Positions 1-33,953 of a stretch of 64,000 nt of DNA are shown here, in pieces (within the stretch, counting starts at the first letter, position 1; each line of letters opens with the position of its first letter). A program made the translations under genes and the position numbers. Source of the stretch: an uncultured Gammaproteobacteria bacterium (GTDB taxonomy: Bacteria; Patescibacteriota; Microgenomatia; Levybacterales; UBA12049); NCBI GenBank assembly GCA_965230895.1, contig OZ246394.1, positions 249,316-313,315 of the forward strand, read 5' to 3'. Under the pieces are notes generated by a model. The model saw only the letters and a program-made list of their open reading frames with translations. It searched no databases and was not told the DNA's origin.

Positions 1-1430
1 AGATCCTTATTGGTTCGTTCAAAGACATTTGCGATTTCGAAGAGTTTGATATTTTCATGGTCTTGATTGTCTTTGACAACTTTCATCATCCCAGGAATTA
101 AAGTCTTTCTCATGTGGACGAATTCTTCAGTTAACGGATTATGAATCGTCACAGCATCAGTTTCTGTTCCTGTTAATAATTCTTTGGAGACCATTGGATA
201 TGTATAGACTTCAGTAAATCCCCAATACTTCAACGTATCTTTGATGCGATCTTCCCAATAGAATTGGTTTTTATCGACGTGGACGTAATCACTTTGGATT
301 GCTGGGGGCAATTGCCCTGGGATATTGTGGTAGCCATAGACACGCGCAATCTCTTCAATGATGTCTTCCTCTATTTGCATATCATCACCGGTCTTCTTGG
401 GCGGTACAGTGACCTCTAGAGTAGAATCCTTTTGCTTCACACTGAATCCAAGTTTGGTCAGAATTTCAATTGATTGTTTCAAAGGAATTGTGACACCGAC
501 GACTCGATTAATTTTTTCTTCTGAAATAGTGATTTTGGTCTCTTTTGGTTTGTCTGGATAAACATCAATAATGTTTGAAACGATCTTTCCCCCGGCTAAC
601 TTTTCAAACAATTTGATTCCAGCAGCAAATGCATCATCAATGTATTCTGGATTGATTCCTTTTTCATTGAGAACTGCTGCTTCGGTACGGATGCCGTATT
701 CCATTGATGCTTTTCTAATGCGAGTTGGTTCGACTGCTTCGATGAAGAACAGAATTCGTTTTGTTTCTTTGGTCACCACACTATTTGCTGTTCCCATCAA
801 TCCGAGCAAATCAACGATCTCGCCTTTGCCATTGTCTGCGACGAGATCTCCGCCTGAAAGTGTATATGTCTTATCATCAAGCGTGGTAACTTTCTCACCT
901 TTTTTAGATTCCCGGACGATGAGTGTGTGATTTTCCAATCGATCATAATCAAAGACATGGGTTGGGTGACCTGTTTCACGCATAACATAGTTAGTTATGT
1001 CGATGACATTGTTCAAGCTTCGGATGCCTGATGCTTCTAAACGATCTTTGATAACTTGAGGAGAATCTTTAATGCTTACTTCCATGATGACTGCACAGAT
1101 TCGATGCACGAGCTTTGGATCGTTTTTGATGATCATTTCCAAATCGTTTTTGATTTTGACTTTTGGTACTTCGAACTTTGGATCGACGAATGTCGCTTTG
1201 ATGCCATTTTGCGGCAAAACGGTTGCGGCTTCACGTGCCAAACCGATCACTGACATAAGATCTGGTCGGTTGGTTGTGACTTCGATGTCATAGACGAAAT
1301 CGTTCTTCCCAAACTTTTCGATGTGCTCGACGCCGACGCTTGTGAGCGAGAGGAGTTCTCCGATCTTTTGCGGCGTTGCTGATGTCTTTACATGTTCTCG
1401 TAACCACGAGTCTAAGATTTTTATGTTCAT
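1..1430 (-). CDS. pheT: phenylalanine--tRNA ligase beta subunit, N-terminal ~476 codons (gene continues past window start)
   Basis: Minus-strand frame opens with ATG (rc of 1428-1430, MNIKILDSWLREHV...) and runs without a stop to position 1. It contains ...TIHNPLTEEFVHMRKTLIPGMMKVVKDNQDHENIKLFEIANVF..., typical of PheT. It lies directly downstream of pheS. It is absent from the ORF track because it runs off the window edge. Confidence 0.85.
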   Translation of the reverse strand, partial: MNIKILDSWLREHVKTSATPQKIGELLSLTSVGVEHIEKFGKNDFVYDIEVTTNRPDLMSVIGLAREAATVLPQNGIKATFVDPKFEVPKVKIKNDLEMIIKNDPKLVHRICAVIMEVSIKDSPQVIKDRLEASGIRSLNNVIDITNYVMRETGHPTHVFDYDRLENHTLIVRESKKGEKVTTLDDKTYTLSGGDLVADNGKGEIVDLLGLMGTANSVVTKETKRILFFIEAVEPTRIRKASMEYGIRTEAAVLNEKGINPEYIDDAFAAGIKLFEKLAGGKIVSNIIDVYPDKPKETKITISEEKINRVVGVTIPLKQSIEILTKLGFSVKQKDSTLEVTVPPKKTGDDMQIEEDIIEEIARVYGYHNIPGQLPPAIQSDYVHVDKNQFYWEDRIKDTLKYWGFTEVYTYPMVSKELLTGTETDAVTIHNPLTEEFVHMRKTLIPGMMKVVKDNQDHENIKLFEIANVFERTNKD

Positions 1431-1534
1431 ATCTCTATGGAAGGGGTCCTGTCTCGCAACATCCCAATCCGATGTCCTCGCTTTGCTGCGGGCACTCGAT
1501 TGGGAGCCCTATGCGAGCCACCCCAGTTGTGATT

Positions 1535-2584
1535 TTAAAATTGTTTCAAGAAATCTAGATCGTTTGCGTAGAGTGTACGCAAGTCATCGATCTGAATTCC
1601 TTCTTTCATCATGAGTACACGCTCGACTCCCCAACCGGATGCAAATCCTGTATATTTCTTTGGATCGATGCCGCCGGCTTTTAAGACATTTGGATGAACC
1701 ATACCTGCGCCACCGAGTTCAAGCCAACCTTCTTTGCACAGTCTGCATTTTTCTTTCCCGACTCTGCCTGTCCCTTTACAGACTCCACATGATACATCGG
1801 TCTCAAATGATGGTTCAGTGAATCGGAAGTTGTATGGGCGGATGCGGGATTTTCGATTCTCGCCGAAATAGGATTTAACGAAATAATCCAAAACTCCCTT
1901 CAAGTGAGCGATTGAGATATTTTCTCCGACGACCAAGGTTTCAAACTGATGGAATGCTGGTGTGTGACTGACATCAATTTGTCTTCGATAGACTTTGGCG
2001 ATGTTTAGCATCTTAAATGGTGGCTTCACTTTCTCCATATGCTGGACTTGTCCGGTTGAAGTATGGACATTGAGCATCATTCGGCCTTTTTGGTGATGTG
2101 GTGGCTCGGCGATGTAAAAGGTTTCTAAGTCATCTCTTGCAGGATGATTTTGTGGGAAGTTTAACGCAGTGAAGTTATACCAATCCCAACTGATTTCAGG
2201 ATATCGTTCTCGAGTGAATCCGATACTTTCAAAGATTGTGGTAATTTCGCGAATTGCCTGAGTAACCAAGTGAAGATGTCCGAGTTCTGGGCGTTTGCCT
2301 GGTTCTGTGACATCAAGTTTTGGGCGGTTGGTAACTTTAATGTCTTTTAATTCTTTTTGCTTGTTCTTGATGGTATCTTCAATGATTCCTTTTACTTCGT
2401 TTACAACTCTTCCTGCTTCTGGTTTTTCAACTGCTGGGATTGTTTTCATCTCTTTCATTGCTTCAGTTAATGTCCCATTGCGACCAAGGAATTGAAGCCT
2501 GAGTTCTTCAAGTTCTGGAAGAGATTTTGCATCGATGATGAGGGAAAGTGCAGTGTTTTTAATTTGTAATAATTTTTCTTTCAT
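1535..2584 (-). CDS. pheS: phenylalanine--tRNA ligase alpha subunit
   Basis: 349 aa. Class II aaRS core motifs (FRFTEPSFE..., GWGVERV) and a PheS-like N-terminal coiled coil. Carries a Cys-rich insertion CGVCKGTGRVGKEKCRLC. Followed by pheT. Confidence 0.9.
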   Translation of the reverse strand: MKEKLLQIKNTALSLIIDAKSLPELEELRLQFLGRNGTLTEAMKEMKTIPAVEKPEAGRVVNEVKGIIEDTIKNKQKELKDIKVTNRPKLDVTEPGKRPELGHLHLVTQAIREITTIFESIGFTRERYPEISWDWYNFTALNFPQNHPARDDLETFYIAEPPHHQKGRMMLNVHTSTGQVQHMEKVKPPFKMLNIAKVYRRQIDVSHTPAFHQFETLVVGENISIAHLKGVLDYFVKSYFGENRKSRIRPYNFRFTEPSFETDVSCGVCKGTGRVGKEKCRLCKEGWLELGGAGMVHPNVLKAGGIDPKKYTGFASGWGVERVLMMKEGIQIDDLRTLYANDLDFLKQF

Positions 2585-2646
2585 TTTTGATTTCTTTATT
2601 ATAACGCAAGATTATTATTTCGTCAGCTTTTTGGACCTCACCCAGA

Positions 2647-2700
2647 CCCTCTCCTAAGAGGAGAGGGATTTAATTAGTTCCTTCTCCTATTAGGAGAAGG
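2647..2700 (-). terminator. tandem near-identical 9-bp-stem hairpins (ccctctcct-aag-aggagaggg and ccttctcct-att-aggagaagg) between the prephenate dehydratase stop and pheS
   Basis: Perfect inverted repeats at 2647-2667 and 2680-2700; the second abuts the TAA of the upstream gene. Arms are CU-rich/AG-rich (anti-SD/SD-like) and could cross-pair. No clean U-tract, so an attenuator role is as likely as simple termination. Confidence 0.45.
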
Positions 2701-3297
2701 TTAGGATGAGGTCTCGGTACTTTTCACCAACAAGAATGTTGTGTAATTGTTCTGATTGTCTTGGAGACCGTTTTCAATAAGTTTTAAACCATATACTTGT
2801 GCCAGCACAGCGCTCCCCATGACTGCTACATTTGCGGGTATAGTCTTTTGAGAGAGTTGCTCTGCCACTTTTGCATGATCGATGAGTTCTCCTTCACCGA
2901 CCACTTGCTTGAGTTTTGGATACTTTTGTTTTAATGTTTCTGAGCATTGTTTAAAGACTTGTGGATGAGCCATGATCGTATCAATATCTTCGATTTGACT
3001 GTCTTTCCGGATCATTAGTGCATGTTCGATTTTCAATTGATAATCAGTTACAAGTTCATAATTGTACTTCCCCATCGCTCTGATACTTTCATGGACAATG
3101 CCTCCAAGTGAATTGTGAATCGCAAACTGTCCTTGGTCGATTTCATTTTCATTAAGTGCCTTAAGGACATGTTCTGTGGTGTATAAGTATTTGAGAGCTG
3201 TATTTGGAACATTGTTGTGCTGCAAATACATAAGTACCGCTTCTTCATTGAAGCTTCCTCTTCCTCCTTGAATACCGATTGTTAATTGTTTTTTCAT
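2701..3297 (-). CDS. prephenate dehydratase (PDT domain only, no ACT domain)
   Basis: 198 aa. N-terminal IGIQGGRGSFNEEA resembles the PDT start (xAYLGPxGTFS), and C-terminal ...NYTTFLLV matches the TRF motif region. Sits between an aminotransferase and chorismate mutase. Confidence 0.6.
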   Translation of the reverse strand: MKKQLTIGIQGGRGSFNEEAVLMYLQHNNVPNTALKYLYTTEHVLKALNENEIDQGQFAIHNSLGGIVHESIRAMGKYNYELVTDYQLKIEHALMIRKDSQIEDIDTIMAHPQVFKQCSETLKQKYPKLKQVVGEGELIDHAKVAEQLSQKTIPANVAVMGSAVLAQVYGLKLIENGLQDNQNNYTTFLLVKSTETSS

Positions 3298-3354
3298 AAT
3301 TGTTTTCCCTGAGCAAACGAAGTGCGTCGAAGGGTTTTAAGACTTCGACTTCGC

Positions 3355-4506
3355 TCAGTCAAAATATTGATCAATCTTATCAATATTGACGCAGATACTG
3401 ACTCGGACAAAACGTTTTCCATTTTCTCCAAATGCTGTTCCTGGAGTTACCAGGATTTGTTTCTCGTTAAGGAGCTTCATGGCATAGGATTCTGCATCTG
3501 TTTCACTATCAGGAATCTTTGCCCAGATATAAAGACTAGCTTTTGGCAATGTGAACGTGAGTCCTAGTTTTTCCAAATAGTTCGCGATAATATCTCGTCG
3601 TGCTTTATAACTTTGGATCATTGCCTTTTGCCATTCTTCATCCGGGTGATTCAAGATATATGCTCCCAATTGTTGCAATGGCCTTGCGATACCGGAATCC
3701 ATTTGCGATTTTACTTTTGCAAAGATTGCGATGATGTCTTTATTGCCTACGACCCAGCCAAGTCTGTAGCCTGCAAGAGAAGATGATTTGGAGAATGAAT
3801 TGATTTCAATGGCGACATCTTTTGCTTCTGGAATTTGTAAAATGCTTGGTGCGACATACCCGTCAAATGTTATCTCAGAATAAGCATTGTCATAAACGAT
3901 AAAGACATTATGTTCTTTTGCAAAATCTACAAGTTGTGCTAAATCTTCCATTGAAGCGATTTGACCCAATGGGTTCGATGGGAAGTTGACCCAGATGAAT
4001 TTCGTTCGATCGGTTACTTTGGATTTGATGTCTTCGATGTTGAGTTTGTACTCATCGGCTTCATCCAAGGTATAGAAGATAGCTTTTGCTCCGATCATGA
4101 TCGCGGGGCCCGCAAAGCCTTGATATCCTGGATCCGGGATCATGACCTCATCTCCTTCGTTGAGAAATGCCAATGGTAAAAGTGAAATTACCTGCTTCTC
4201 TCCAACTGAGGAATATACTTCGTCTGGCTCGAGATCTACTCCAAACCGTTTTTTATGCCATGCAATCAATGCGTCACGGAATTCTGGAAGTGGTCCATAC
4301 CCAGGATACATATGCGCATTGGATGCATTAATGAATTCTTCAAGTTTCGCAACATATTTTGCACTCGGTGGGACATCGGGAGATCCTGCCCCAAAGTTCA
4401 ATACTTTTTTCCCGGTTTCTTTCTCAACCCGAGCGACTTCTCTATTGAGTCGTGAGAAAATATATTCCGGGAAATGATTAATTCTGTTTGCTGGTGTTAT
4501 GTTCAT
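3355..4506 (-). CDS. class I/II PLP-dependent aminotransferase (aromatic/aspartate/LL-DAP aminotransferase-like)
   Basis: 383 aa. SFSKSSSLAGYRLGW contains the PLP-lysine motif (SxSKxxxxxGxRxG); the length is typical of fold-type I aminotransferases. Confidence 0.8.
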   Translation of the reverse strand: MNITPANRINHFPEYIFSRLNREVARVEKETGKKVLNFGAGSPDVPPSAKYVAKLEEFINASNAHMYPGYGPLPEFRDALIAWHKKRFGVDLEPDEVYSSVGEKQVISLLPLAFLNEGDEVMIPDPGYQGFAGPAIMIGAKAIFYTLDEADEYKLNIEDIKSKVTDRTKFIWVNFPSNPLGQIASMEDLAQLVDFAKEHNVFIVYDNAYSEITFDGYVAPSILQIPEAKDVAIEINSFSKSSSLAGYRLGWVVGNKDIIAIFAKVKSQMDSGIARPLQQLGAYILNHPDEEWQKAMIQSYKARRDIIANYLEKLGLTFTLPKASLYIWAKIPDSETDAESYAMKLLNEKQILVTPGTAFGENGKRFVRVSICVNIDKIDQYFD

Positions 4507-4513
4507 AGCTCTT

Positions 4514-4804
4514 TCATTTCGCCCTATCTTCTATTTCGAGTGCTTCCTTATGGATTCGTTCATAGATATCTTTGATGAGATCTTCGGACAATCCTTTCTC
4601 TCCTGCTAGTGCAATCTTCGATTGCAAAACTTGTTCCCACCGTTTTGGATCAAGTGGTGGCAAATTATTTTCTTTTTTTAATTTTCCGACGCGTTGTACT
4701 ACAGCCATTCTTTCTGCTAAAGCGTCAAGTATCTTGGCATCAGCTGCATCAATTTCAGCTCGTAATTGTTCAAGCGTATCGGTCATAGTTCTTTGCAACA
4801 TCAT
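4514..4804 (-). CDS. chorismate mutase (AroQ class, monofunctional)
   Basis: 96 aa. LEQLRAEIDAADAKILDALAERMAVVQRVGKLKKENNLPPLDPKRWEQVL matches the AroQ helix-bundle pattern (LRxxIDxIDxxIxxLLxxR...P..DPxRE). Confidence 0.75.
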   Translation of the reverse strand: MMLQRTMTDTLEQLRAEIDAADAKILDALAERMAVVQRVGKLKKENNLPPLDPKRWEQVLQSKIALAGEKGLSEDLIKDIYERIHKEALEIEDRAK

Positions 4805-4866
4805 TTATACTATCATGCCCAGCCGATGTAAATCAGCGAAATGAAAAAAGAGCTCATTGCAAAAAA

Positions 4867-5301
4867 TTACCAACCTCTTCTTCTGCTCATAGTTGTACCT
4901 GCAGTACTTTGTGGTCTATTAAGTATTCCACTTCGTCCTGACATTGTTGCTTGCCCCTTAAACTTCCTTGTAAGCGCTTGTGCATCGACTACTACTTCGA
5001 CTCCTGGAGTTAACTCTTTTACACCTGTACCTTGCTTATCAAGTGTAACTTGTAAAGTCTCTTTGCCTAATTGTGGAGCACGAACTTCGATATGAGAATT
5101 TTCATCTCCTGGATTAACATGTGTCGTGTCTACCATTACTCCTTCTGGAAGAATTGGAGACCTGTCGAAGCGTCTTCGCCATTGTGGTATATCAGTGACG
5201 CGGTCTTCCCAGACAACTTCTTGTCCATCTCTCGATTTGTATTGTACGGTTATTCCATCTGGACTAAATTGAGCTATTGAATCTGATCTTCGTTCTGTCA
5301 T
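4867..5301 (-). CDS. hypothetical protein (144 aa), first gene after the rplT terminator
   Basis: Strong SD (AAGGGGGTGA) 8 nt upstream of the ATG. Relatively GC-rich. No confident family; faint Hsp20-like features only. Confidence 0.5.
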   Translation of the reverse strand: MTERRSDSIAQFSPDGITVQYKSRDGQEVVWEDRVTDIPQWRRRFDRSPILPEGVMVDTTHVNPGDENSHIEVRAPQLGKETLQVTLDKQGTGVKELTPGVEVVVDAQALTRKFKGQATMSGRSGILNRPQSTAGTTMSRRRGW

Positions 5302-5322
5302 AAATAAATCACCCCCTTAACG

Positions 5323-5347
5323 CAAAAAACCTCCCTTGTGAGGAGGT
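5323..5347 (-). terminator. rho-independent terminator after rplT
   Basis: Minus strand reads acctcc-ucacaag-ggaggu followed by UUUUUUg, about 110 nt downstream of the rplT stop. Confidence 0.75.
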
Positions 5348-5456
5348 CTTGGTAATGATTTTACCTATTGTTAGTGCATTTTACGCAGCCAACAAACCTC
5401 CTTGAGGGGAAGTAAAGTAAAACCAAAAATAAGCTTTGTTGACAATTCGCATAGGA

Positions 5457-5810
5457 TTATTTTGCAGACTTTGCTGCTGTTACAACATGTTTCCATGCTG
5501 TTGGGTCTTCAACGATCAAGTTACTCAATGATTTTCGATCAAGAGCGATATTTGCTTTTTGAAGCATGTTGATAAATGTACTGTAGTTCAAACCTTCTTT
5601 TTTAACAGCTTCAGAGATACGTGTAATCCAAAGTGTTCGGAAATCCTGCTTTCGGATCTTTCGTCCGTTGTATGCGTATTGTCCAGCATGAAGTGCTGCT
5701 TCTCGAGCAACTTTAACTAATTTACTTTTTGTTCCACGATATCCCTTTGTCAAAGACAAAAGTTTATTGTGTTTTCTTCTTGATACTAATCCTCTTTTAA
5801 CTCTAGCCAT
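5457..5810 (-). CDS. rplT: 50S ribosomal protein L20
   Basis: 117 aa. MARVKRGLVSRRKHNKLLSLTKGYRG... is canonical L20. Confidence 0.95.
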   Translation of the reverse strand: MARVKRGLVSRRKHNKLLSLTKGYRGTKSKLVKVAREAALHAGQYAYNGRKIRKQDFRTLWITRISEAVKKEGLNYSTFINMLQKANIALDRKSLSNLIVEDPTAWKHVVTAAKSAK

Positions 5811-5816
5811 AATATT

Positions 5817-5893
5817 AATTGAGAGTTGAAAATTGAAAGTTGAAAGTTATTGAAAATTTTAATTCTCAATTCTCAACTCTGAATTCCCAATTC
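5817..5893 (-). promoter_or_regulatory. long imperfect stem-loop built from tandem heptad repeats in the rpmI-rplT spacer
   Basis: aattgagaGTTGAAAATTGAAAGTTGAAAGtt ... aATTCTCAATTCTCAactctgaatt: R-TTGAAA heptads on one arm, ATTCYCA heptads on the other, with about 20/23 complementarity. Confidence 0.4.
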
Positions 5894-6105
5894 TATCCTA
5901 ATGCCATCATTTGCTTAATTTTCTTTGCAAATTTACCTGTTAACTCTGCTGGTTCTTTCAATCTTCGTAGTCTTCTCTTTGATTTACCGATCTTCAAATG
6001 TCCACCAAATTGCTTACCGTGCATGACTTTACCAGTCTTTGTAACTTTAAATCGCTTTGTTACAGCGCTTTTTGTTTTCTTTTTTAGTTTCATTCCTTTT
6101 TTCAT
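5893..6105 (-). CDS. rpmI: 50S ribosomal protein L35
   Basis: 70 aa, very basic. MKKGMKLKKKTKSAVTKRFKVTKTGKVMHGK... is L35-like. Confidence 0.9.
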   Translation of the reverse strand: MKKGMKLKKKTKSAVTKRFKVTKTGKVMHGKQFGGHLKIGKSKRRLRRLKEPAELTGKFAKKIKQMMALG

Positions 6106-6107
6106 AA

Positions 6108-6704
6108 TTATTCTTTTGGTGCTTCAGTTTCTTCAGTCTGAGCTTCTCCTTCTTCTTTTACTTTCTTTCCTTTTTCAGGAGACATTAACGCTACCATCTG
6201 TCTTCCTTCAAACTTTGCTTCTCTGTCGACTTTTGAAATGTCACTCAACGAGTCAACGACTTTTTGAATAACTTCCCGTCCAAATTCAGATCGAGTGATT
6301 TGTCTTCCTCTGAACTTTACAACCAATCTAATCTTGTCTCCGTCTTCTAAGAATTCTCGTCCGCGTCTGATCATTACTTGCAGATCATTATCAGACATAA
6401 AAGGGCCAAGGCGAATTTCCTTGGTTTCAGAAGTTTTGGCTTTCTTCTTCTCTTCCTGTTTCTTCTTCGATTGTTGATATAGGAATTTGTTGTAGTCGAT
6501 TATTTTTGCAACTGGTGGCTTTGCCGTAGCTGCGATCTCAACTAAATCAAGTTCCTGTTCTTCAGCAAGTTTTAAAGCTTCATCTCTCGTCAAAACTCCA
6601 ACCTGTTTTCCTTCAGCATCCAACACACGAAGTTGTGATGCGAAGATCCGTCCGTTAATTCTGTATCGTTTCTCTTGCTGTTTGAATTTAGATCTTTTTT
6701 GCAA
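6108..6704 (-). CDS. infC: translation initiation factor IF-3
   Basis: 198 aa. INGRIFASQLRVLDAEGKQVGVLTRDEALKLAEEQELDLVEI... and a C-terminal domain with a Lys/Glu-rich tail. Overlaps the thrS 3' end by 17 nt. Confidence 0.9.
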   Translation of the reverse strand: MQKRSKFKQQEKRYRINGRIFASQLRVLDAEGKQVGVLTRDEALKLAEEQELDLVEIAATAKPPVAKIIDYNKFLYQQSKKKQEEKKKAKTSETKEIRLGPFMSDNDLQVMIRRGREFLEDGDKIRLVVKFRGRQITRSEFGREVIQKVVDSLSDISKVDREAKFEGRQMVALMSPEKGKKVKEEGEAQTEETEAPKE

Positions 6705-8451
6705 TGTTTTCTAGTAATACCTCAAGAAATGCGTCGGTCTTGATCGATCCAAGATCTTCCCCATCTCTTTTACGCACAGAAACTGCCGACTCGGCAATTT
6801 CTTTGTCCCCTATTATACCCATAAAAGGTACTTTTTGTAAAGTAGCGTCTCGTATTTTGGCTTGAAGCCGTTCTGAACGTGTATCAAGCTCTGCTCTGAT
6901 GCCTGCATTTTGAAGCTGTTCTATAACTTTTTGGCCAAATTCAATGTGCCGATCAGCAATTGGCAAAAGGACAACTTGCACCGGTGCAAGCCATGTTGGG
7001 AACTTTCCGCCATAGTGTTCTATCAAAACTCCGAGGAATCGTTCGAGTGATCCGTATACAGCTCTGTGGAATGCCACTGGCTGTACTTCTTTTCCTTGGT
7101 TATCGATATATTTAAGTCCGAAGTTCTTTGGTTGTTGGAAATCTAGCTGAATTGTTCCTGTTTGCCATTGTCTTCCCAACGAGTCTTTCATCAAGATGTC
7201 AATCTTTGGACCATAGAACGCTCCTTCACCCGCAACAGTTATATATGCTTTTCCTGAATCATCAAGCGCTTCTTTCAATGAAGATTCTGCAATATCCCAA
7301 TCTTTTTCTGATCCCATAAACTTCTCTCCACGGGTTCCAAAACGAAGGATATACTCTAAACCAAATGGTTCATACATTTCAGCAATCATTTTAAGCATTG
7401 AATCAAATTCTGATTTGATCTGATCAATCGTTATAAAAACATGCGCATCATCCTGGCGAAATTGTCTTGTACGGAATAATCCATTGAGCGTGCCAGATAG
7501 TTCAAACCGGTGAAGCATACTTGTCTCCGCAAGGCGCATTGGAAGTTCATGGTATGAACGAAGTTTGTGTTTGAATATCGTCATGGCATTTGGACAGTTC
7601 ATCGGTTTCATTCCAAAAACTTCAGGCCCTTCCAAGACTTCTTTTGATTCTCCTCGCAAATAACTCATCGGAGAAAGGAACATGTCATCTCTGTAGTGCT
7701 GCCAATGTCCGGATGTTTCAAATAATGTTTTCTTATTAATTTGCGGCGCCATGACCTCCAGATATCCATATTTGCGATACATTTGGCGGGTGAAATCATA
7801 CAATGTGTTATACAGGACGAAACCTTTTGGTAACCAATACGGCATACCTGGCGCAGATTCTTCAAAAATAAAAAGTTCTAATTCTTTCCCAAGCTTTTTA
7901 TGATCTCGTGCCTTTGCTTCCTCAAGCATTTGGAGATGATCATCAAGATCTTTTTGTGTAGGCCAAGCTGTCCCGTAAACACGAGTCAACATCTTATTCT
8001 TCTCATCGCCTCTCCAATATGCTCCTGCAAGTGAAAGTAATTTAAATGCACCGATGTCTTTTCGCGGATCTTCGCTATGACCGCCTCGGCAAAGATCTTC
8101 GAAGTATCCAGCTTTATAAAATGTTAATTTCTCTCCGCGTTCGACGATGCCATTAATGAGTTCAAGTTTATACGGATTATCTTTATACACTTCCCGAGCT
8201 TCTTTCTCTGTGACTTCTCGATGTGTGAATCCTTCCCAACCCTTTAACGTCTCAGCCATTTTCTTCTCAATCTTTGGCAGATCTGCATCAGAGATAGGTT
8301 TGGCGAAATCAAAATCGTAATAAAATCCATTGTCGATTGCCGGTCCGATGGTTAATTTGGTATCCGGATACAACCGAAGCACAGCCGCAGCCAAAAGATG
8401 CGCTGCTGAGTGTCGGAGCTCTTCAAGGTGTTTGGAGTTTTCATTGCCCAT
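6688..8451 (-). CDS. thrS: threonine--tRNA ligase
   Basis: 587 aa. Editing-domain HxxxH/CxxxH-type segment (HSAAHLLAAAV), class II core, C-terminal anticodon-binding domain. Somewhat short at the N-terminus. Confidence 0.9.
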   Translation of the reverse strand: MGNENSKHLEELRHSAAHLLAAAVLRLYPDTKLTIGPAIDNGFYYDFDFAKPISDADLPKIEKKMAETLKGWEGFTHREVTEKEAREVYKDNPYKLELINGIVERGEKLTFYKAGYFEDLCRGGHSEDPRKDIGAFKLLSLAGAYWRGDEKNKMLTRVYGTAWPTQKDLDDHLQMLEEAKARDHKKLGKELELFIFEESAPGMPYWLPKGFVLYNTLYDFTRQMYRKYGYLEVMAPQINKKTLFETSGHWQHYRDDMFLSPMSYLRGESKEVLEGPEVFGMKPMNCPNAMTIFKHKLRSYHELPMRLAETSMLHRFELSGTLNGLFRTRQFRQDDAHVFITIDQIKSEFDSMLKMIAEMYEPFGLEYILRFGTRGEKFMGSEKDWDIAESSLKEALDDSGKAYITVAGEGAFYGPKIDILMKDSLGRQWQTGTIQLDFQQPKNFGLKYIDNQGKEVQPVAFHRAVYGSLERFLGVLIEHYGGKFPTWLAPVQVVLLPIADRHIEFGQKVIEQLQNAGIRAELDTRSERLQAKIRDATLQKVPFMGIIGDKEIAESAVSVRKRDGEDLGSIKTDAFLEVLLENIAKKI

Positions 8452-8519
8452 GTAGGCATTATAGTAAAAAAAGTATTCTTTATAAAGAGGAGAGAATATA
8501 TTATTAAGGTTAATTTTTT

Positions 8520-9012
8520 AGAAACTTCTTTAATGAAAGTGCTTCAGTAACTGAAACGTGATTAAATTCTTTTGTAACACTGTCAACCATACCTTTCCAT
8601 TTTATTATTGTGTATTGATAATAGTTCTTTCTTAAAATAACATCACTATAATGAACCTCTACTATCATATAGTGTTCTGATAGATTTTTATTTTTACTAT
8701 TCCATGGAGTTTCAAATGTTGGGTATATAGATATTCCCTTAGCTATCTCAGTTGGAGTTACTATTTGACTGGAAAATTTAGGTATGAAGTTCTTGTCTAT
8801 TATTTGGATCTTAGTTTCTAAATTTTTTAAAGGCCTTACTCCAACATTCGTTAAAGTAATAAAACAGCTTATGGGTCCTAAATTTTTACTAAAATATCCG
8901 ATATTAAATCCTTCAAAACCAATATATGGTCTATTGCCAAATATCGTAAGATAAATAGTCCAAGCGTAGCAACTGAAGAAATAGCTGCTAAGAGCACAGT
9001 TAAAAATTCATA
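8520..9012 (-). pseudogene. frameshifted small secreted/membrane protein gene (two consecutive frames)
   Basis: ATG at rc 9012 gives MNEYEFLTVLLAAISSVATLGLFILRYLAI... (signal/TM) ending after 47 codons. An overlapping shifted frame has no ATG/GTG/TTG start, continues about 165 codons (...GPISCFITLTNVGVRPLKNLETKIQIIDKNF...KKFLKN*) and ends about 8521. Neither piece is in the ORF track as a gene over 60 aa with its own start. Confidence 0.3.
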
Positions 9013-20972: not shown

Positions 20973-21055
20973 GCGGATGTGGTGAAATGGTATACACGCT
21001 ACCTTGAGGTGGTAGTGCTCGCAAGGGCGTGGAGGTTCAACTCCTCTCATCCGCA
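20973..21055 (+). tRNA. tRNA-Leu (anticodon GAG)
   Basis: Acceptor GCGGATG/CATCCGC, anticodon stem CTACC/GGTAG with loop TTGAGGT, long variable arm, T-loop TTCAACT. The last 19 nt overlap the stop-proximal codons of the convergent recombinase gene. Confidence 0.85.
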
Positions 21056-22569
21056 CTGAAGGAGAACTCCTCCGATTCGAATGCTCGAATAGACTGATAT
21101 ATCGGACTAATTGAAGTGTTGTAGTAGTCTGGATAGCCCCATCTGAGTCCCTCAGGGAAAATTGAACACAGTAAGACACGGAGCTGGCTAAGTGTAGACA
21201 TTTGGTATGTTTTTCCTAAATTTACAAATTTCTCTTTCATAAAAGTAATAATAATTTCAAGATTATATTTAGCAAGCAAAGCATCATCCTTTGTAATATG
21301 AAGAGCTGCTATTTGATCTTCAATAAGTTTATTCTGTTCTTTGAATATTTCATCTGAATAAGTTCCATTTAAATTCTTTTGTATAAGCTGTTGACGCATT
21401 TCAGAAAGTCTCTGCATCTCTTTATCTGCTTCATCTCTGCGTTTTTGTAGTTGTGCTACTCGTGCATAATAAGTTCTTCTAAGCAGTGCTATAAAAGCGT
21501 TAAGTGCTTCTTGCGTTGGTGTTATGCCTGATAAATAATGTGCAAGTTCTTTATGTGCTTTATCAGCAGAGATAGAGGTAGGTTTTGGACATTTTTGACA
21601 ACGATAGTAAGCATACTTCATACGTTTCCCTTTACTCCATCCTCCTGTCACAGGATTGCTACATCTATGGCAAATAAGTAGTCTTCGGAGTGGAAATTCC
21701 GCATTATCCTTATTTCTCCTGGTTAATGGAATATTTATATTAGTATTTCTGCCGTCAATCGCTGCCTGAACTCGATAGAAAAGAGCTTCTGATACCATTG
21801 GCAGGTGTTGTCCTTTCACTTCTTCAGGGTACTTTTCTGAGGATAGTATCCCAATATAAAATTTATTGCGAAACATTCGACTTAATGCTTGCTCTCGTAC
21901 AATATGTTTTTTCCCAGCAAAGTTTTGTCTCACTCCCCTATCATTCATTAATTTTGCCATTTCTTTTAATGTCTTTGTTCCTGTTGCCATAAGTTCCCAT
22001 GCAGCTTTTACTTTATCCCATGTTTGTGGATTTTTGACTGCATAACCATTCTCATTTTTGTATCCTAATGGCGGTGTTCCGCTCGTAAGTCCTGCCAAAA
22101 ATCGTGCTCGTAGACCGTTTTTAGTTCGCTCACTTCGTACATCATTATCCATTTGTGCAAAGCTAGCAAGCATAGACTCAATAAAGCGTTCTGTTGGTGT
22201 ATTTCCTGTTGGTTCTGAAGCTGAAAGTATCATTATGCCATAATCTGAAAGCTTTTTCCTAATGGCTAAATAGTCTTGCAACTGTCGGGATATACGATCC
22301 AATCTGTAGACAATTAAAGCATCAATATTCTGTTTGTTCTTTCTGCAATATTCCATAAGTTCCTTAAGCACAGGTCTTCCTGAAATATTTTTTGCAGATT
22401 TCCCTTCTTCTTTAAATACCTTAATAACTGTTAACCCTTTTCTTTCTGCTTCTTGCCTGCAAATTTTTTCTTGGGTTCCGAGTGAGAAATTATCTACTTG
22501 TTCTTCGCTTGAGACTCGAATATATGCAATTGATTGTTTAGTGCCTTTTGTAAAAGTTATTGATTCCAT
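21037..22569 (-). CDS. large serine recombinase (resolvase/invertase catalytic domain + recombinase domain + zinc-ribbon/coiled-coil)
   Basis: 510 aa. IAYIRVSSEEQVDNFSLGTQE (catalytic Ser motif), ...RLDRISR..., and downstream Cys pairs (CHRCSNP...CQKC). Confidence 0.85.
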   Translation of the reverse strand: MESITFTKGTKQSIAYIRVSSEEQVDNFSLGTQEKICRQEAERKGLTVIKVFKEEGKSAKNISGRPVLKELMEYCRKNKQNIDALIVYRLDRISRQLQDYLAIRKKLSDYGIMILSASEPTGNTPTERFIESMLASFAQMDNDVRSERTKNGLRARFLAGLTSGTPPLGYKNENGYAVKNPQTWDKVKAAWELMATGTKTLKEMAKLMNDRGVRQNFAGKKHIVREQALSRMFRNKFYIGILSSEKYPEEVKGQHLPMVSEALFYRVQAAIDGRNTNINIPLTRRNKDNAEFPLRRLLICHRCSNPVTGGWSKGKRMKYAYYRCQKCPKPTSISADKAHKELAHYLSGITPTQEALNAFIALLRRTYYARVAQLQKRRDEADKEMQRLSEMRQQLIQKNLNGTYSDEIFKEQNKLIEDQIAALHITKDDALLAKYNLEIIITFMKEKFVNLGKTYQMSTLSQLRVLLCSIFPEGLRWGYPDYYNTSISPIYQSIRAFESEEFSFSADERS

Positions 22570-22571
22570 GA

Positions 22572-22919
22572 TTATTTTTCGTTGAGTACTTCTTTTAGAG
22601 TCATCCCACTAAAGAGATCTTTTTCAAATTCATCGAGCCATGTATCTATAAGGAATTGAAACTCTGTAGTTACACATTGGATCTTTTCATCAGAAAAATC
22701 TTTCCCTTTTTCTCCAAACATCTTGCGCATTTTTATAACAGTATTTTCTTCTACACCATGGAAAAAGATGTCTTTCAAGCTATTTTCAAGAGGATTAAAT
22801 ATGTCGGCAGGTGGAGAGGCTATATCGGGACTTTCTTTTTGAGGAGTTTTTATATCAGAAGAAATAGAGGTTTCAAATATGGATAATTGTGGTAAGTTTA
22901 TATCTTGCATGATGTTCAA
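22572..22919 (-). CDS. hypothetical protein (115 aa), immediately upstream of and co-oriented with the recombinase
   Basis: Stop is 2 nt before the recombinase ATG. Acidic; could be a recombination directionality factor (speculative). Confidence 0.45.
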   Translation of the reverse strand: MNIMQDINLPQLSIFETSISSDIKTPQKESPDIASPPADIFNPLENSLKDIFFHGVEENTVIKMRKMFGEKGKDFSDEKIQCVTTEFQFLIDTWLDEFEKDLFSGMTLKEVLNEK

Positions 22920-22922
22920 TAA

Positions 22923-23035
22923 CTATCTCCTTAGGGATAGTATATATCTCTATCGGGATAGTGTTCAGTCAATATAAATGATTATTTTTATTGTCTTTCC
23001 GATAATGGCAATCAATAAAGATTATTGCCATAGTT
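22923..23035. promoter_or_regulatory. operator-like repeats in the divergent recombinase-operon / XRE promoter region
   Basis: actatc-N8-gatagt and ctatc-gg-gatag palindromes (gggatagt repeated 30 nt apart), plus aatggcaat-N14-attgccata inverted repeat. Confidence 0.4.
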
Positions 23036-23042
23036 CTTTCAT

Positions 23043-23291
23043 ATGTCATTTTTAGGAAATGATTCTGCAAAAACTCGTGAGCTTAAGAAAGAAGATTATG
23101 CTTTAGCTGAGAAAATCCAAAGATTTCGTAGAGAAAGAGGGATGACTCAAGAAGAACTTTCTGAAAAGATAGGCAGGAATTCTTCATATATTGCTTATGT
23201 TGAAACCCATAGAAGAGGCTTAAGTTTGCCTGTTGTTTATAAACTTGCACGAGTTTTAAAAGTGAAATTGAAAGAGTTGTTTGATTTCTAG
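23043..23291 (+). CDS. XRE-family HTH transcriptional regulator
   Basis: 82 aa. RRERGMTQEELSEKIGRNSSYIAYVETHRRGLSLPVVYKLARVL. Confidence 0.8.
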   Translation: MSFLGNDSAKTRELKKEDYALAEKIQRFRRERGMTQEELSEKIGRNSSYIAYVETHRRGLSLPVVYKLARVLKVKLKELFDF

Positions 23292-23299
23292 TTTAAGTT

Positions 23300-23375
23300 G
23301 CTCCTCAGTATAGACTTGAACTACAACCTTCTCGTAAACTGCGAGCTGCTCTACCAATTAAGCTACCGAGGAATA
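23300..23375 (-). tRNA. tRNA-like gene, most likely tRNA-Asn (GTT), with an atypical anticodon loop (CAGTTTA)
   Basis: Acceptor TCCTCGG/CTGAGGA (one G-U), D-arm GCTT-AATTGGTA-GAGC, T-arm TGTAG-TTCAAGT-CTATA. The anticodon stem has a 27-43 mismatch and A33/T37 in the loop, so identity is uncertain. Confidence 0.5.
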
Positions 23376-23383
23376 TTATTATC

Positions 23384-24574
23384 TTAAAATTGTAACAGAA
23401 TTTTTAGTTTCTTGACGGCTTCTTTGATTTCTTGCTTTGATGCACTTGAGAAGGAAATTCGGATATTCGAAGAATATTTATCACCGAAATAATTCCCTGG
23501 AACAATTGCTATGCCTTGGTCAAGTAATGCATCACAAAAATCTTGTGCATCACGAATCAATTTCCCTGCAATAGTTTTGCCGAAGAAAGAACTTATATTA
23601 GGAAATAAGAAGACTGCCCCTTCTCCATCAATATCTTTGAATCCTTGTATATCTCTTAATCCATCTTTAAGCAATGATTTCCTCTCACTAAATTTATTAA
23701 TTGTAGCTAAAAGAGATTTTTGATCTCCAGCCCAAGCTTCTATTGCCGCGACTTGTGCAAAAGAAACCGGGTTAGCTGTTACTTGTGCTTGTAACATCGA
23801 CATTGTCTTTATTACTTTATTATTCCCACATATAAATCCTATTCTAAACCCGCTCATTGAGTAATCTTTTGAAGTCGAACCAATCGTGAACGTTCTGTTA
23901 AATGCATCCTGCGAGATTGTTGCTATTGGAATATGTTTATTATTCCCATATGTAAAATTCGCCATTGTTTCATCAGAAATAATAAATAAATTCTTTTCAT
24001 TTGCCACATCAGCTATCATTTCAAGCGTTTTCTTTTTGTAAACACGGCCTGTGGGATTAGAAGGACTATTAATAATAATTATTTTAGTTTTTGGAGATAT
24101 AACTTCCAAAAGTTCTTTTTTTGTTGGTTCAAAATTATTCTCTTCTTGTGTATTAACAATAACTGGGATTCCACCCGCAATTTTTACTTGTTCTATATAA
24201 GTTTCCCAATAAGGAGCAAGTATTATTGTTTCATCACCCGTATTTAGAAGTGAGAAAATGCTGTTAAATAGTGCGTGTTTTGAGCCACAAGAAATAAGGC
24301 AATCAATTTGCGGATTATACTGCAAGTTATATTTTTTACGTAGCATGTGACATACTGTTTCTTTAAGTTCAATAATTCCTGAGTAAGTTGTATATTTTGT
24401 TTGGTTATCTTGAATTGCCTTAATTGCAATATCTTTAATATTTTGTGGAGTTTTTACATTAGTTTCAATTGTATCTAATCGAATAATTTTCTTGCCATTG
24501 CTTTCAAGAATTTTTATTTTCTCTTTAATAACATTTGTTGGTGAAATTCGTATGTCCTTAAGATTGTTCCGCAT
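23384..24574 (-). CDS. class I/II PLP-dependent aminotransferase (aspartate-aminotransferase fold)
   Basis: 396 aa. ...IINSPSNPTGRVY... and ...TFTIGSTSKDYSMSGFRIGF... (PLP-lysine region). AT-rich codon usage. Confidence 0.75.
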   Translation of the reverse strand: MRNNLKDIRISPTNVIKEKIKILESNGKKIIRLDTIETNVKTPQNIKDIAIKAIQDNQTKYTTYSGIIELKETVCHMLRKKYNLQYNPQIDCLISCGSKHALFNSIFSLLNTGDETIILAPYWETYIEQVKIAGGIPVIVNTQEENNFEPTKKELLEVISPKTKIIIINSPSNPTGRVYKKKTLEMIADVANEKNLFIISDETMANFTYGNNKHIPIATISQDAFNRTFTIGSTSKDYSMSGFRIGFICGNNKVIKTMSMLQAQVTANPVSFAQVAAIEAWAGDQKSLLATINKFSERKSLLKDGLRDIQGFKDIDGEGAVFLFPNISSFFGKTIAGKLIRDAQDFCDALLDQGIAIVPGNYFGDKYSSNIRISFSSASKQEIKEAVKKLKILLQF

Positions 24575-24671
24575 TGGAGTTTTATACTAAAAGTAGAGTT
24601 AATAGTTATTTTCCATCTTGAAAAAAATAGCTATGTTTGAGATTATACACTAATCGCTCTAGCTTTATATA

Positions 24672-26006
24672 ATGAAAAAAAAGTATATCATACATTTAGA
24701 GAAATTATTACAGAACAAGCATAAAGAGAATGAAGCGATTGCACTCCCCTGTTGGATAAAAGGAAAACGACTCTATAAAGACGTAATGTTTCTAGACATA
24801 ACTGATTCCACTGGCACTATTCAAGTTATTGCAAAAAAAGATCTAATGGGCGAAGAAGATTTTAAGCGTTTAAAAAATACTCCTCAGGAATCTTGTATAG
24901 AAGTAGAATGTGTTGCATCAACAGATCCAGTTAGTAAAGAAAAGAGTATTTTTATTAAGAAGTTCAATTTAGTGGGTGAATGGAAATTGAAATTACAGCC
25001 AGGACCTCGTTCTGATTTTGACGTTTTCTCCTCGGAGAACTCTGATTTTCTTCTTAAAAATAGACATCTTTATATCAGAAATCCAAAAGTAATGGCTATG
25101 TTAAAGTTTCGACATCAAATGATGGGTGCTGTACATGAGTGGTATCGAAAAAATGGATTTATAGAGATTACTGCTCCAGTTTTGACACAACTTCCTTTAT
25201 ATGAAGATGGGAGCGCGCTTTCTCTTAAAATTGATAAGGATGATATTTATCTAACGCAATGTGTAGGATTTTACTTAGAGAGTGCAGTTGCAGCATTTGA
25301 GAAAGTATATAATATTGGTCCGAGTTTTCGCGGTGAAGAAAGTAGAAGCAAACGGCATTTGATGGAATATTGGCATATCAAAGCAGAAGTCGCATTTATT
25401 AATTTAGAGGAAGGTCAAAAGATGGTTGAAGATTTATTAGCATTTATTGTTAATGATCTTATGGAGAATGGTCAAGATATTCTCAAAACGTTAAATGCTC
25501 AACCTGCGCTAGAGATATTAAAAGCACCTTTCCCTAAAATTACTTATCGTGAAGCAGTTAAATTACTTAATGATAATGGACACTCTTTTACATTTGGCAA
25601 AAGTCTGAGTTCTTTAGAAGAAGGCATTCTAGCAGAAAAGTTTACGACTCCTTTTTGGGTTGTGGGTATTCCGAAATCTTTAGAGCCATTTCCTTATGTC
25701 ATAGATCCAAAAGATGCTGAGGTCACAAGAGTCTCAGATCTTATTGCTCCAAGAGGGTATGGAGAGCTTTTAGGAGTAGCCGAAAAGATATATGATATTG
25801 ATGAACTTAACTCAAGAATGAAAGATAAAGGGAAACTTGATAATAAAAATTACAAATGGGTTCAAGAATTACGAGAATCTGGATATTTTCCACATGTTGG
25901 TTTTGGAATGGGAGTTGAAAGATTTATCCGTTATATTCTTGGGCAAGAACATGTTCGAGATGCAATACCTTTCCCTCGAGTATTTCGAAGAAAAATATAT
26001 CCATAA
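24672..26006 (+). CDS. class IIb aminoacyl-tRNA-synthetase homolog, AsnRS/AspRS-like (with N-terminal OB-fold)
   Basis: 444 aa. N-terminal OB-like segment (LPCWIKGKRLYKDVMFLDITDSTGTIQVIAKKD), motif 2-like FRGEESRSKRHLMEYWHIKAEVAF, motif 3-like GFGMGVERFIRYILG. Confidence 0.65.
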   Translation: MKKKYIIHLEKLLQNKHKENEAIALPCWIKGKRLYKDVMFLDITDSTGTIQVIAKKDLMGEEDFKRLKNTPQESCIEVECVASTDPVSKEKSIFIKKFNLVGEWKLKLQPGPRSDFDVFSSENSDFLLKNRHLYIRNPKVMAMLKFRHQMMGAVHEWYRKNGFIEITAPVLTQLPLYEDGSALSLKIDKDDIYLTQCVGFYLESAVAAFEKVYNIGPSFRGEESRSKRHLMEYWHIKAEVAFINLEEGQKMVEDLLAFIVNDLMENGQDILKTLNAQPALEILKAPFPKITYREAVKLLNDNGHSFTFGKSLSSLEEGILAEKFTTPFWVVGIPKSLEPFPYVIDPKDAEVTRVSDLIAPRGYGELLGVAEKIYDIDELNSRMKDKGKLDNKNYKWVQELRESGYFPHVGFGMGVERFIRYILGQEHVRDAIPFPRVFRRKIYP

Positions 26007-26011
26007 AGATT

Positions 26012-26521
26012 ATGACAAATACAAAATATTCTATTGAACCTCTCGACATTAAACATGCAGACCCACTTACTAATTGGTTTAATACATTTGTTGATCAAGA
26101 TCTAGGTGTTGTAGAGAATTTTCATGTAACCGTGGATTCCGAAAGGAGTTATATTGAAGATTACCTCTCTACAATTAAGACAGGCGAACCTATGTCATAT
26201 ATTATTTCCCATGATGAAATTATTGTTGGAAAAGTCGATATCCGTCCGTTTTCAAGATATATTGATAAACATGTTGTGGAGTTAGGTTTTGGAATGCTAA
26301 AGGACCATCCTGAAGCAGGTAAGCAACTCCTTCAATTTATTGAAGAACCTTTGAAGAAAAGAAATCTCGAAGTTGTACTCTATTTTATTTTAGCTCGTAA
26401 TAATTATTTTAGAGAACTTTTCAAACTATCTGGGTTTAAAGAAGTTGGTAAAATTGATAACTTTTATAAAGTAGATGAAGGTTATGACGCAAGAATTATT
26501 TTAGAAAAGATTTTGAAATAA
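26012..26521 (+). CDS. GNAT-like acetyltransferase-fold protein (tentative)
   Basis: 169 aa, 6 nt after the aaRS-like stop. Beta-strand/helix pattern and VVELGFGM... segment consistent with the acyl-CoA N-acyltransferase fold; weak. Confidence 0.35.
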   Translation: MTNTKYSIEPLDIKHADPLTNWFNTFVDQDLGVVENFHVTVDSERSYIEDYLSTIKTGEPMSYIISHDEIIVGKVDIRPFSRYIDKHVVELGFGMLKDHPEAGKQLLQFIEEPLKKRNLEVVLYFILARNNYFRELFKLSGFKEVGKIDNFYKVDEGYDARIILEKILK

Positions 26522-26559
26522 TTACTTCACTTATTGCTATATTTTCTCATTACTCAAGT

Positions 26560-27093: not shown

Positions 27094-27102
27094 AGTTCAC
27101 GA

Positions 27103-28176: not shown

Positions 28177-28203
28177 ACTATATTATTGAGCAGGTTGTTA
28201 ATT

Positions 28204-29115: not shown

Positions 29116-29172
29116 ATTCTAGGAGGCTGCAAAGTCTCGACAATTATATCATAATAATCTACAATTGCTTTT

Positions 29173-31913: not shown

Positions 31914-31971
31914 TATGCAATCTCTTAAATTAGTAATGATCCCCTACTTATAGCAATTTCTTGTGAACAAA

Positions 31972-33603: not shown

Positions 33604-33618
33604 GGATCGAAGCTTGAA

Positions 33619-33879: not shown

Positions 33880-33953
33880 GGTGATTCTATCACAAAATTC
33901 AGTATTTTAAGCACACATAACCAAAAAGATGTATAATATCTGAAGAAGATATT

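Follow-up and report, generated by a model that had tools for sequence, protein, structure and literature searches.

A four-gene aromatic cassette lying between rplT and pheS in a 64-kb window of contig OZ246394.1 (the window being the whole stretch of DNA analysed) is probably controlled by a ribosome-mediated attenuator situated behind rplT, and was probably trimmed from a fuller aromatic operon. The cassette comprises the genes for a hypothetical protein (hyp144), a chorismate mutase (CM), an aminotransferase (AT) and a prephenate dehydratase (PDT). Open reading frame (ORF) listing and hidden Markov model (HMM) scans give the order thrS-infC-rpmI-rplT-hyp144-CM-AT-PDT-pheS-pheT for positions 1-8451 (-), every gene lying where a preliminary description, made from the sequence, had placed it. 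The host cluster is that of a bacterium resembling Levybacteria, within the Candidate Phyla Radiation (CPR; Patescibacteria, Microgenomates). The closest named homologues of the PDT come from Candidatus Levybacteria (72%), Roizman-, Davies- and Dojkabacteria, all of the Microgenomates group of the Patescibacteria/CPR.

The cassette would provide the enzymes leading from chorismate to phenylalanine; its three assigned enzymes are the set that this branch requires, as had been recognized earlier. When charged aromatic tRNAs are scarce, a ribosome translating a short leader ORF would stall on a run of YFWFYF codons and mask a first RNA segment (ACUUCC). A second segment, thereby left free, would pair with a third one once this has been transcribed, the terminator (segment 3:4 followed by U6) would be blocked, and RNA polymerase would continue into hyp144-CM-AT-PDT. 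When aromatic amino acids are plentiful, the ribosome would reach the leader stop codon and mask segment 2, the terminator would form and transcription would end at about position 5324. As to its origin, the cassette would be a trimmed aromatic operon, which other Microgenomates keep at the rplT-pheS position behind the same leader, up to the whole shikimate and Phe/Tyr pathway.

Leader ORF and competing helices behind rplT

The spacer between rplT and hyp144 measures 155 nt, and the ATG of the leader ORF lies 4 nt past the rplT stop codon. The ORF encodes MRIVNKAYFWFYFTSPQGGLLAA with the codons ATG CGA ATT GTC AAC AAA GCT TAT TTT TGG TTT TAC TTT ACT TCC CCT CAA GGA GGT TTG TTG GCT GCG TAA, six of which, at 5431..5414 (-), are aromatic and follow one another without interruption (TAT TTT TGG TTT TAC TTT; Y F W F Y F). 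The preliminary description had taken a leader of the pheST type to be missing here; it is present, but stands ahead of the biosynthetic genes. A shared core, (Y)FWFYFTS(P), recurs in 12 distinct leaders (the window, L005, L007, L033-L037, L039, L040, L041 and L042), with the Trp replaced in L042 and L039. The in-frame ATG and stop codon are kept in all 12, and the flanks are variable. Leaders L033-L037 were found by a metagenome scan for the degenerate core and L039-L042 through the loci of protein relatives; the collection draws on Levybacteria, Daviesbacteria and unassigned metagenomic relatives. The leader of L005 reads MTINSRAYFWFYFTSPQGGVFAA, and that of L007 is conserved as well.

Four segments of the leader RNA can form alternative helices. 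In hairpin H1, 5413..5394 (-), segment 1 (DNA ACTTCC, 5413..5408), which consists of the Thr-Ser-Pro codons that immediately follow the final Phe codon, is paired with segment 2, AGGAGGTTT (5402..5394; as RNA AGGAGGUUU). Segment 2 can also pair with segment 3, AGACCTCCT (5349..5341; as RNA AGACCUCCU), which gives an antiterminator at 5402..5341 (-) of -16.0 kcal/mol that encloses a hairpin H2 (5395..5368) holding the leader stop codon. Pairing of segment 3 with segment 4, GGGAGGU (5335..5329), makes the terminator, a 7-bp G+C-rich stem at 5348..5329 (GACCTCCT-cacaa-GGGAGGT) whose last T is shared with the T6 run at 5329..5324. In addition, the 3' part of the aromatic codons (5424..5415) can pair with TAGGTAAAATC (5367..5357) in a helix P1, with duplex energies of -8.4 to -13.6 kcal/mol in the nine sequences tested. 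Of the terminator that had been described after rplT, the hairpin and T-run stand, but its reading as a plain terminator does not, since it would be one half of an attenuator.

In 12/12 leaders a terminator follows the leader ORF and precedes the first structural gene. Across nine leaders tested, the antiterminator duplex ranges from -11.6 to -17.6 kcal/mol, and cognate pairs of segments 2 and 3 average -15.7 kcal/mol against -11.25 kcal/mol for non-cognate pairs (permutation p ~1e-4). The terminator stems differ by lineage (ACCUCC/GGGAGG, CCCCGC/GCGGGG, GCCCC/GGGGC and UCCCCC/GGGGGA), and segment 2 together with its 3' extension co-varies with them: in L034, GGGG-A-GUUCUUU pairs with AAAGAAC-CA-CCCC, and in L035 GGAGGGGUAAUU pairs with AAUUACACCUCC. 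Because a MAFFT alignment of 11 sequences takes no account of structure, RNAalifold recovered from it no more than H1 and a portion of the terminator, and per-sequence duplex energies were used instead.

Folding of full-length masked transcripts for minimum free energy (MFE) was replaced by a kinetic model in which transcripts truncated just before segment 4, that is, at the moment of decision, were folded with ribosome footprint masks. A mask on the aromatic codons led to segment 2:3 pairing in 12/12 truncated folds, and a mask at the stop codon abolished this pairing in all 12. In the model, the antiterminator is thus mutually exclusive and dependent on ribosome position, which is the logic of classical attenuation. 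The preliminary description had supposed that any feedback control would have to be transcriptional, and the predicted leader-peptide attenuator agrees with this.

The codon content of the leaders appears to track the content of the operons behind them in most loci examined. FWFYF-type leaders precede DAHP synthase (DAHPS) operons in L033, L035, L036, L040 and L041. A second leader of L036, MTHITNIFFAFFAFR (FFAFFAF), followed by a terminator, precedes a pheA gene encoding PDT with ACT, and a leader of L040, MNKNQIITITTIPS (IITITTI), with the same four-segment layout, precedes ilvA. Versions without Trp are found in L042, where YFYFYF stands before hyp-CM-AT-PDH::PDT (PDH, TyrA-type dehydrogenase), i.e., the Tyr and Phe branches, and in L039, where YFGFYF stands before hyp-PDT only. 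Such a correspondence would be difficult to account for if ribosomes did not read the leader ORFs. The same leader heads aromatic operons away from rplT/pheS in L034 and L041. Since FFAFFAF precedes pheA and IITITTI precedes ilvA, attenuation looks like a general strategy in the clade.

Some of these loci show further features. The ilvA attenuator of L040, at 6160-6270 (+) of CP066685.1, begins with a promoter-like TTGACA-17-TAGTAT ahead of its ORF, has the segments CCUUCC / GGGAGG / ACCUCCC / GGGAGG-U6, and lies just downstream of leu/ilv genes; it would place branched-chain biosynthesis with attenuation in a CPR genome of 0.76 Mb. Tandem attenuators occur on the reverse strand of L036 (positions 645 and 2037), in the order rplT, FFAFFAF leader, PDT::ACT, YFWFYF leader, hyp137, DAHPS. 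On the reverse strand of L037 (position 1269), a second candidate leader, MIKTQNSFYFYFTSLPWRLRCGLK, lies behind the hyp gene, and its terminator is weak. A generic scan of the window for further leader-peptide attenuators gave none that was convincing.

The aromatic cassette and its relatives

The genes between rplT and pheS are a real insertion, and a conserved one. An identical cassette is present on four independent Logan contigs (short-read assemblies), and the exact order thrS-infC-rpmI-rplT-hyp-CM-AT-PDT-pheS-pheT is found in two relatives, L005 and the Levybacteria metagenome-assembled genome (MAG) L007 (GCA_013816255), whose cassette proteins are 52-86% identical to those of the window. 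The arrangement is therefore neither a chance event nor an assembly artefact. The flanking order thrS-infC-rpmI-rplT (5457..8451) is shared by relatives and by Escherichia coli K-12. All four cassette genes are under purifying selection, with ratios of nonsynonymous to synonymous substitution (dN/dS) of 0.05-0.36. Against L005/L007 the values are 0.17/0.36 for hyp, 0.23/0.24 for CM and 0.05/0.12 for AT; the PDT gives 0.11 against L007, dS being saturated against L005. The GC content of the cassette equals that of its flanks, which together with the conserved synteny rules out a recent horizontal insertion. Given synteny, purifying selection and matching GC content, the insertion is old and maintained.

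Nor is the arrangement an oddity of a single genome, as it had first appeared: across Levybacteria-like CPR bacteria the rplT-pheS slot holds a variable aromatic cassette. It contains hyp-CM-AT-PDT in the window, L005 and L007, hyp-PfkB-DAHPS-CM-AT-PDT in the closest relative of the PDT (73% identical), hyp-CM-AT-PDH::PDT in L042, DAHPS-PDH::PDT in L033 and hyp-PDT in L039. In L040, the complete Levyibacteriota genome CP066685.1 of 762,565 bp, the slot holds DAHPS-aroB-aroQ-aroA-aroK-aroE-aroC-PDH::PDT::ACT-CM-BCAT, the entire pathway from erythrose-4-P and phosphoenolpyruvate to Phe and Tyr. Elsewhere, a CM-AT-(PDH)-PDT module stands behind aroB-aroA::aroK-aroE-aroD-aroC in L038, and in the Daviesbacteria MAG L041 the leader-DAHPS operon follows trpEGDCFBA. 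Because the contents of the slot vary up to a full pathway, the window cassette is best read as a trimmed aromatic operon.

The PfkB-family kinase gene of the closest relative lies between hyp and DAHPS; the window has a PfkB gene of its own at 39721-40869 (-), adjoining tRNA-Val/tRNA-Phe. Orphan ACT-less PDTs, with no CM, aminotransferase or aro neighbours, were seen on two CPR-like contigs (L009 10001-10591 and L011 10001-10630); one of them adjoins a class Ib tRNA synthetase gene and the other lies about 6.5 kb from pheST.

HMM searches bear out the CM_2 and PDT assignments of the preliminary description. The CM reaches 88 bits against a cutoff of 27 over positions 1-79 of the 80 of the PF01817 profile and, judged by its sequence, is an ordinary AroQ domain; its true start may be the ATG at 4786. 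The aminotransferase scores 211.8 bits with PF00155 and stays below every NCBIfam equivalog cutoff, the best being PRK09276 (LL-DAP-aminotransferase subfamily) with 370 against 507 bits. Its relatives in the PDB are of mixed specificity and include the aromatic and aspartate aminotransferases of Pyrococcus and a plant prephenate aminotransferase. It would use phenylpyruvate or prephenate. The genes CM, AT and PDT stand in the order in which the arogenate route (chorismate, prephenate, arogenate, Phe) would use their products, and the sequence by itself would fit the arogenate and the phenylpyruvate routes alike. Aminotransferases of this general type are said, in work attributed to Graindorge et al. 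in 2014, to be capable of acting as prephenate aminotransferases.

The PDT matches PF00800 with 132.8 bits (cutoff 25.2) over profile positions 1-179 of 181 and has no ACT domain, as stated before; its substrate may be prephenate or arogenate. Its motif is T-T-F where T-R-F is canonical, the Thr being retained and the Arg replaced. It falls far under the cutoff of the NCBIfam equivalogs (94 against 219), and the closest solved structure is 2qmx (E 1.4e-10). Among its 120 closest homologues, 101 have at most 235 residues, i.e., lack ACT, and 109 carry T[S/T]F instead of TRF, so that the ACT-less state is the norm of this subfamily. In many of its members the PDT is joined to a TyrA-type dehydrogenase, the C-terminal region of which matches Pfam TYRAAT1_C. 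Fusions of this kind to ACT-less PDTs were noted at L033 3143-4432, L041 16510-17838, L042 4083-5444 and L010 9511-10858, and in L015; the fusion of L010 is split at a different point.

The first gene behind the predicted attenuator, hyp144, has no match in Pfam or NCBIfam. A word index gave three homologues and an exhaustive phmmer search about eight genuine small ones, which conserve an MTE..DS.AQF N-terminus and an RRRGW C-terminus. More than 100 long phmmer matches covered only residues ~8-35 ('FSPDG...', resembling a beta-propeller repeat) and were discarded as motif matches. The AlphaFold2 model is of low confidence (pLDDT 61.5), and a Foldseek search with it against the PDB returned nothing under E 0.1. 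On the strength of dN/dS, the small homologues and the conserved termini, hyp144 is taken to be a real gene.

Weighing the proposed switch and its alternatives

A number of results weigh against the attenuator and its assignment to phenylalanine synthesis. None of the leader ATGs is preceded by a Shine-Dalgarno (SD) sequence, though the downstream genes have strong ones, so that translation of the leader would have to depend either on coupling to rplT or on near-leaderless starts. The distance of the ATG from the rplT stop codon, 4 nt in the window and 1 nt in L005, suggests coupling in these two; a -10-like promoter box read from the sequence 6-11 nt before the ATG suggests near-leaderless starts in L034, L037, L041 and the ilvA leader of L040. 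The aromatic core is invariant at synonymous sites, probably because it also forms P1 and H1, and constraint on the peptide is there inseparable from constraint on the RNA. The Trp codon fits poorly with a cassette for Phe only. A simple consensus terminator scan of the window did not list the hairpin at 5348..5324. In full-length MFE folds with a stalled-ribosome mask the terminator still wins in most sequences; the model therefore requires co-transcriptional kinetics. With no ribosome, segment 3 is wholly or mostly paired with segment 2, as in the antiterminator, in six of the 12 truncated folds, that of the window included. The match to the Rfam family RF01859 (Phe_leader) is below threshold, at 26.4 bits against a gathering cutoff of 55. 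Finally, genes for DAHPS, aroB/D/Q/E/K/A/C, trp and tyrA are all missing from the 64-kb window, and none of the best 120 of 652 DAHPS homologues lies on the source contig (1,610,123 bp) or on the sister contig (1,318,932 bp).

The absence of an SD sequence and the conservation of the core UAUUUUUGGUUUUACUUUACUUCCCC at the nucleotide level, as part of P1 and H1, would also be expected of an RNA structure that responds to a signal unrelated to where the ribosome sits, for instance through a protein- or tRNA-binding antiterminator, the small ORF being incidental. We regard this as quite improbable: ATG and stop remain in frame in all 12 leaders although the sequence around them varies, replacement of W by Y or by G leaves the frame intact, the identity of the codon run follows the pathway (Phe-only, Ile/Thr or aromatic), and neither a T-box nor any other Rfam family was detected at threshold. 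Very improbable is the simpler reading that a plain terminator ends the rplT operon and that a separate, otherwise unregulated Phe-branch operon was inserted beside pheST, coupling Phe synthesis with its charging. It has the gene order and HMM assignments right, and there is a hairpin with a T-run after rplT. Ahead of that hairpin, however, stand a competing helix that co-varies and a conserved ORF of 23 codons, six of them aromatic; the same leader also serves aromatic operons away from rplT/pheS, and pheS has a promoter-like site of its own.

The cassette could alternatively be an eroding remnant or salvage module. The genome would then no longer make chorismate, and the CM-AT-PDT cassette would be left over from a complete aromatic operon, either being lost or finishing Phe from chorismate, prephenate or phenylpyruvate of a host or partner. 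Close relatives differ widely in what the cassette holds, the extreme being a lone PDT; certain gene sets could not function unaided, for example DAHPS with PDH::PDT where CM or AT is missing; and other CPR genomes hold orphan PDTs. The Trp codon of the leader would suit an ancestral operon for the common pathway better than the Phe branch. Searching the window by tblastn with the aro, trp, tyrA, ilv, tkt and tal proteins of relatives returned nothing but the PDT, and no shikimate-pathway gene is annotated in 20.6 kb around the cassette of the sister species. The query for DAHPS was the short-type enzyme of a relative, with which other Levybacteria score 63-65%, and the outcome is weak evidence against a DAHPS of that type in the source and sister contigs. 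On the other side, the four genes are intact and under purifying selection, the attenuator is intact, and the evidence covers 64 kb of a 1.61-Mb contig and the best 120 of 652 DAHPS matches. We know of no report that establishes chorismate or prephenate uptake as a trait. Because the DAHPS homologue search is not decisive, erosion or salvage is kept as an unlikely explanation that nevertheless has a real chance of being correct. An improbable extension of it is that the source lineage has lost the shikimate pathway, that the attenuator-controlled CM-AT-PDT finishes Phe from chorismate or prephenate of a host or partner, and that the clade-specific hyp144 and the ACT-less T[S/T]F PDT are adaptations to this hand-off, for example as a new regulatory or substrate-delivery subunit; if true, it would document an amino-acid pathway split between a CPR symbiont and its host. 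The attenuated, trimmed Phe operon remains the reading that we prefer. Aromatic biosynthesis as such, which had been called unexpected in a reduced genome, is not exceptional in this group, given 652 short DAHPS homologues, many of them labelled Levy- or Daviesbacteria.

Known systems and other features of the window

The leader pheM of the E. coli pheST-ihfA operon occupies the same chromosomal position (thrS-infC-rpmI-rplT-leader; the order in K-12 is rplT-pheM-pheS-pheT). Like the window leader, it is a short ORF carrying a series of Phe codons, with Tyr in addition, and the FYFTS of the window leader is similar to its ...FYF(S)T ending. The E. coli pheST leader works by the terminator/antiterminator logic that is proposed for the window. 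The window leader differs from it in mixing Tyr, Phe and Trp codons, in being separated from pheS by four biosynthetic genes, in lacking an SD sequence and in its occurrence in a CPR bacterium; in addition, pheS of the window apparently has its own promoter. At the gathering threshold, Rfam found only tRNAs in the window and four related loci. The sub-threshold match to RF01859, the leader of enterobacterial pheA (pheL), has an E-value of 0.51 on 9 kb and of 0.0097 on a 171-nt region; it is aligned end to end (model positions 1-125 of 125), best in the terminator. The likeness lies in a codon run that pairs with a downstream A-rich segment, a small CCCC/GGAG hairpin, a terminator of the CCUCC...GGAGG-U type and control of a prephenate dehydratase gene. 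The score excludes the window from the family, and codon content and phylum differ. T-box leaders are the usual control of pheST in Firmicutes; in window positions 1-9000 no T-box was matched at gathering or at E up to 5. A T-box guessed upstream of trpE in L041 was not confirmed by Rfam at gathering.

Aromatic supraoperons are known from Bacillus subtilis (aroF-aroB-aroH-trpEDCFBA-hisC-tyrA-aroE) and from Bacteroidetes/Chlorobi (PDT-aminotransferase-DAHPS/CM-PDH clusters). The CPR loci resemble them in the clustering of CM, aminotransferase and PDT/PDH with shikimate genes in what would be a single transcription unit (L038, L040 and L041). Unlike them, the CPR cassettes are embedded in the thrS-pheT translation cluster, appear to be governed by a leader peptide rather than by TRAP or a T-box, have a PDT without ACT, and are eroded differently in different lineages. 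Compared with canonical PheA/PDT, in which PDT is joined to ACT (Chlorobium tepidum, 2qmx), the window PDT matches over its full length and keeps the Thr of TRF, but lacks ACT and belongs to the T[S/T]F subfamily that is often fused to a TyrA-type dehydrogenase.

To our knowledge, the usual view of CPR/Patescibacteria is that they cannot make amino acids, and there is hardly any knowledge of their gene regulation. Levybacteria and Daviesbacteria carry aromatic amino-acid genes, with a full pathway in one 0.76-Mb genome, and these genes are placed inside the universally conserved thrS-pheT cluster under predicted leader-peptide attenuation. The mechanism is textbook; as far as could be checked, what is new is that it occurs in CPR bacteria, that its leader mixes different aromatic codons, and that an aromatic cassette of variable content lies in the thrS-pheT cluster. 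Searches of the accessible literature brought up no report of leader-peptide attenuation, of the shikimate pathway or of this arrangement in CPR bacteria, and earlier comparative work covers Proteobacteria, Actinobacteria and Firmicutes (PMC1262725). A textbook proteobacterial mechanism would thereby be extended to a very distant lineage. The signature (Y)FWFYFTS(P) plus terminator could serve to search metagenomes for CPR aromatic operons, and the partly eroded cassettes would offer a natural series for the study of pathway loss during genome reduction.

Table 1. Features of the thrS-pheT cluster and the aromatic cassette in the window
Feature	Coordinates	Strand	Basis
thrS	8451..6688	-	Pfam
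infC	6704..6108	-	Pfam
rpmI	6105..5893	-	Pfam
rplT	5810..5457	-	Pfam
Leader ORF, 23 codons + stop	5452..5381	-	Sequence, kept in distinct related leaders
Intrinsic terminator + T6	5348..5324	-	Hairpin + T-run
hyp144, 144 aa	5301..4867	-	ORF, strong SD AAGGGGGTGA
Chorismate mutase (CM_2), 96 aa as called	4804..4514	-	PF01817, E 4.7e-25
Class I/II pyridoxal phosphate-dependent aminotransferase, 383 aa	4506..3355	-	PF00155, E 2e-62
PDT domain, stand-alone, 198 aa	3297..2701	-	PF00800, E 1.5e-38
PDT-pheS spacer	2700..2585	-	Two hairpins + promoter-like site
pheS	2584..1535	-	HMM
pheS-pheT hairpin spacer, 104 nt	1534..1431	-	Sequence, folding
pheT, cut by window end	1430..1	-	HMM

Downstream of the cassette, the two hairpins of the PDT-pheS spacer have no U-tract, and a promoter-like CTGACG-17-TATAAT at 2626..2598 (-), a 10/12 match, lies 10 nt upstream of the pheS ATG. 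Transcripts of pheST may therefore arise by read-through as well as from a promoter of their own, and a single transcript could possibly couple the synthesis of Phe with its charging. The hairpins, at 2700-2633 (-), are palindromic: one is CCTTCTCCTaatAGGAGAAGG, the other CCCTCTCCTcttAGGAGAGGG followed by TCTGGGTGAGGTCC. At ~7775-7815 of L007, in the stretch from the attenuator terminator to the hyp gene, the second hairpin element is repeated almost letter for letter; it has the appearance of a small repeat of the REP/MITE (repetitive extragenic palindrome/miniature inverted-repeat transposable element) kind and is present once in the window. The G+C-rich insertion that separates pheS from pheT forms a single long hairpin when folded (-41.9 kcal/mol, z -3.3); the sister genome L005 lacks this insertion, its pheS and pheT genes adjoining each other directly.

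The remainder of the window holds housekeeping genes and a probable island. At ~21000-34000, a block of low GC content (~33% against 40%) lies between two serine-recombinase genes, 21037-22569 (-) and 32254-33603 (+), adjoins two tRNA-Leu genes and a tRNA-Asn gene, and is possibly an integrated element. Its cargo includes a PUA-ATP sulfurylase-APS (adenylyl sulfate) kinase fusion (29173-30903), a DHH/DHHA1 phosphoesterase (30900-31913), AsnRS/AspRS and a second class I aminotransferase (23384-24574).

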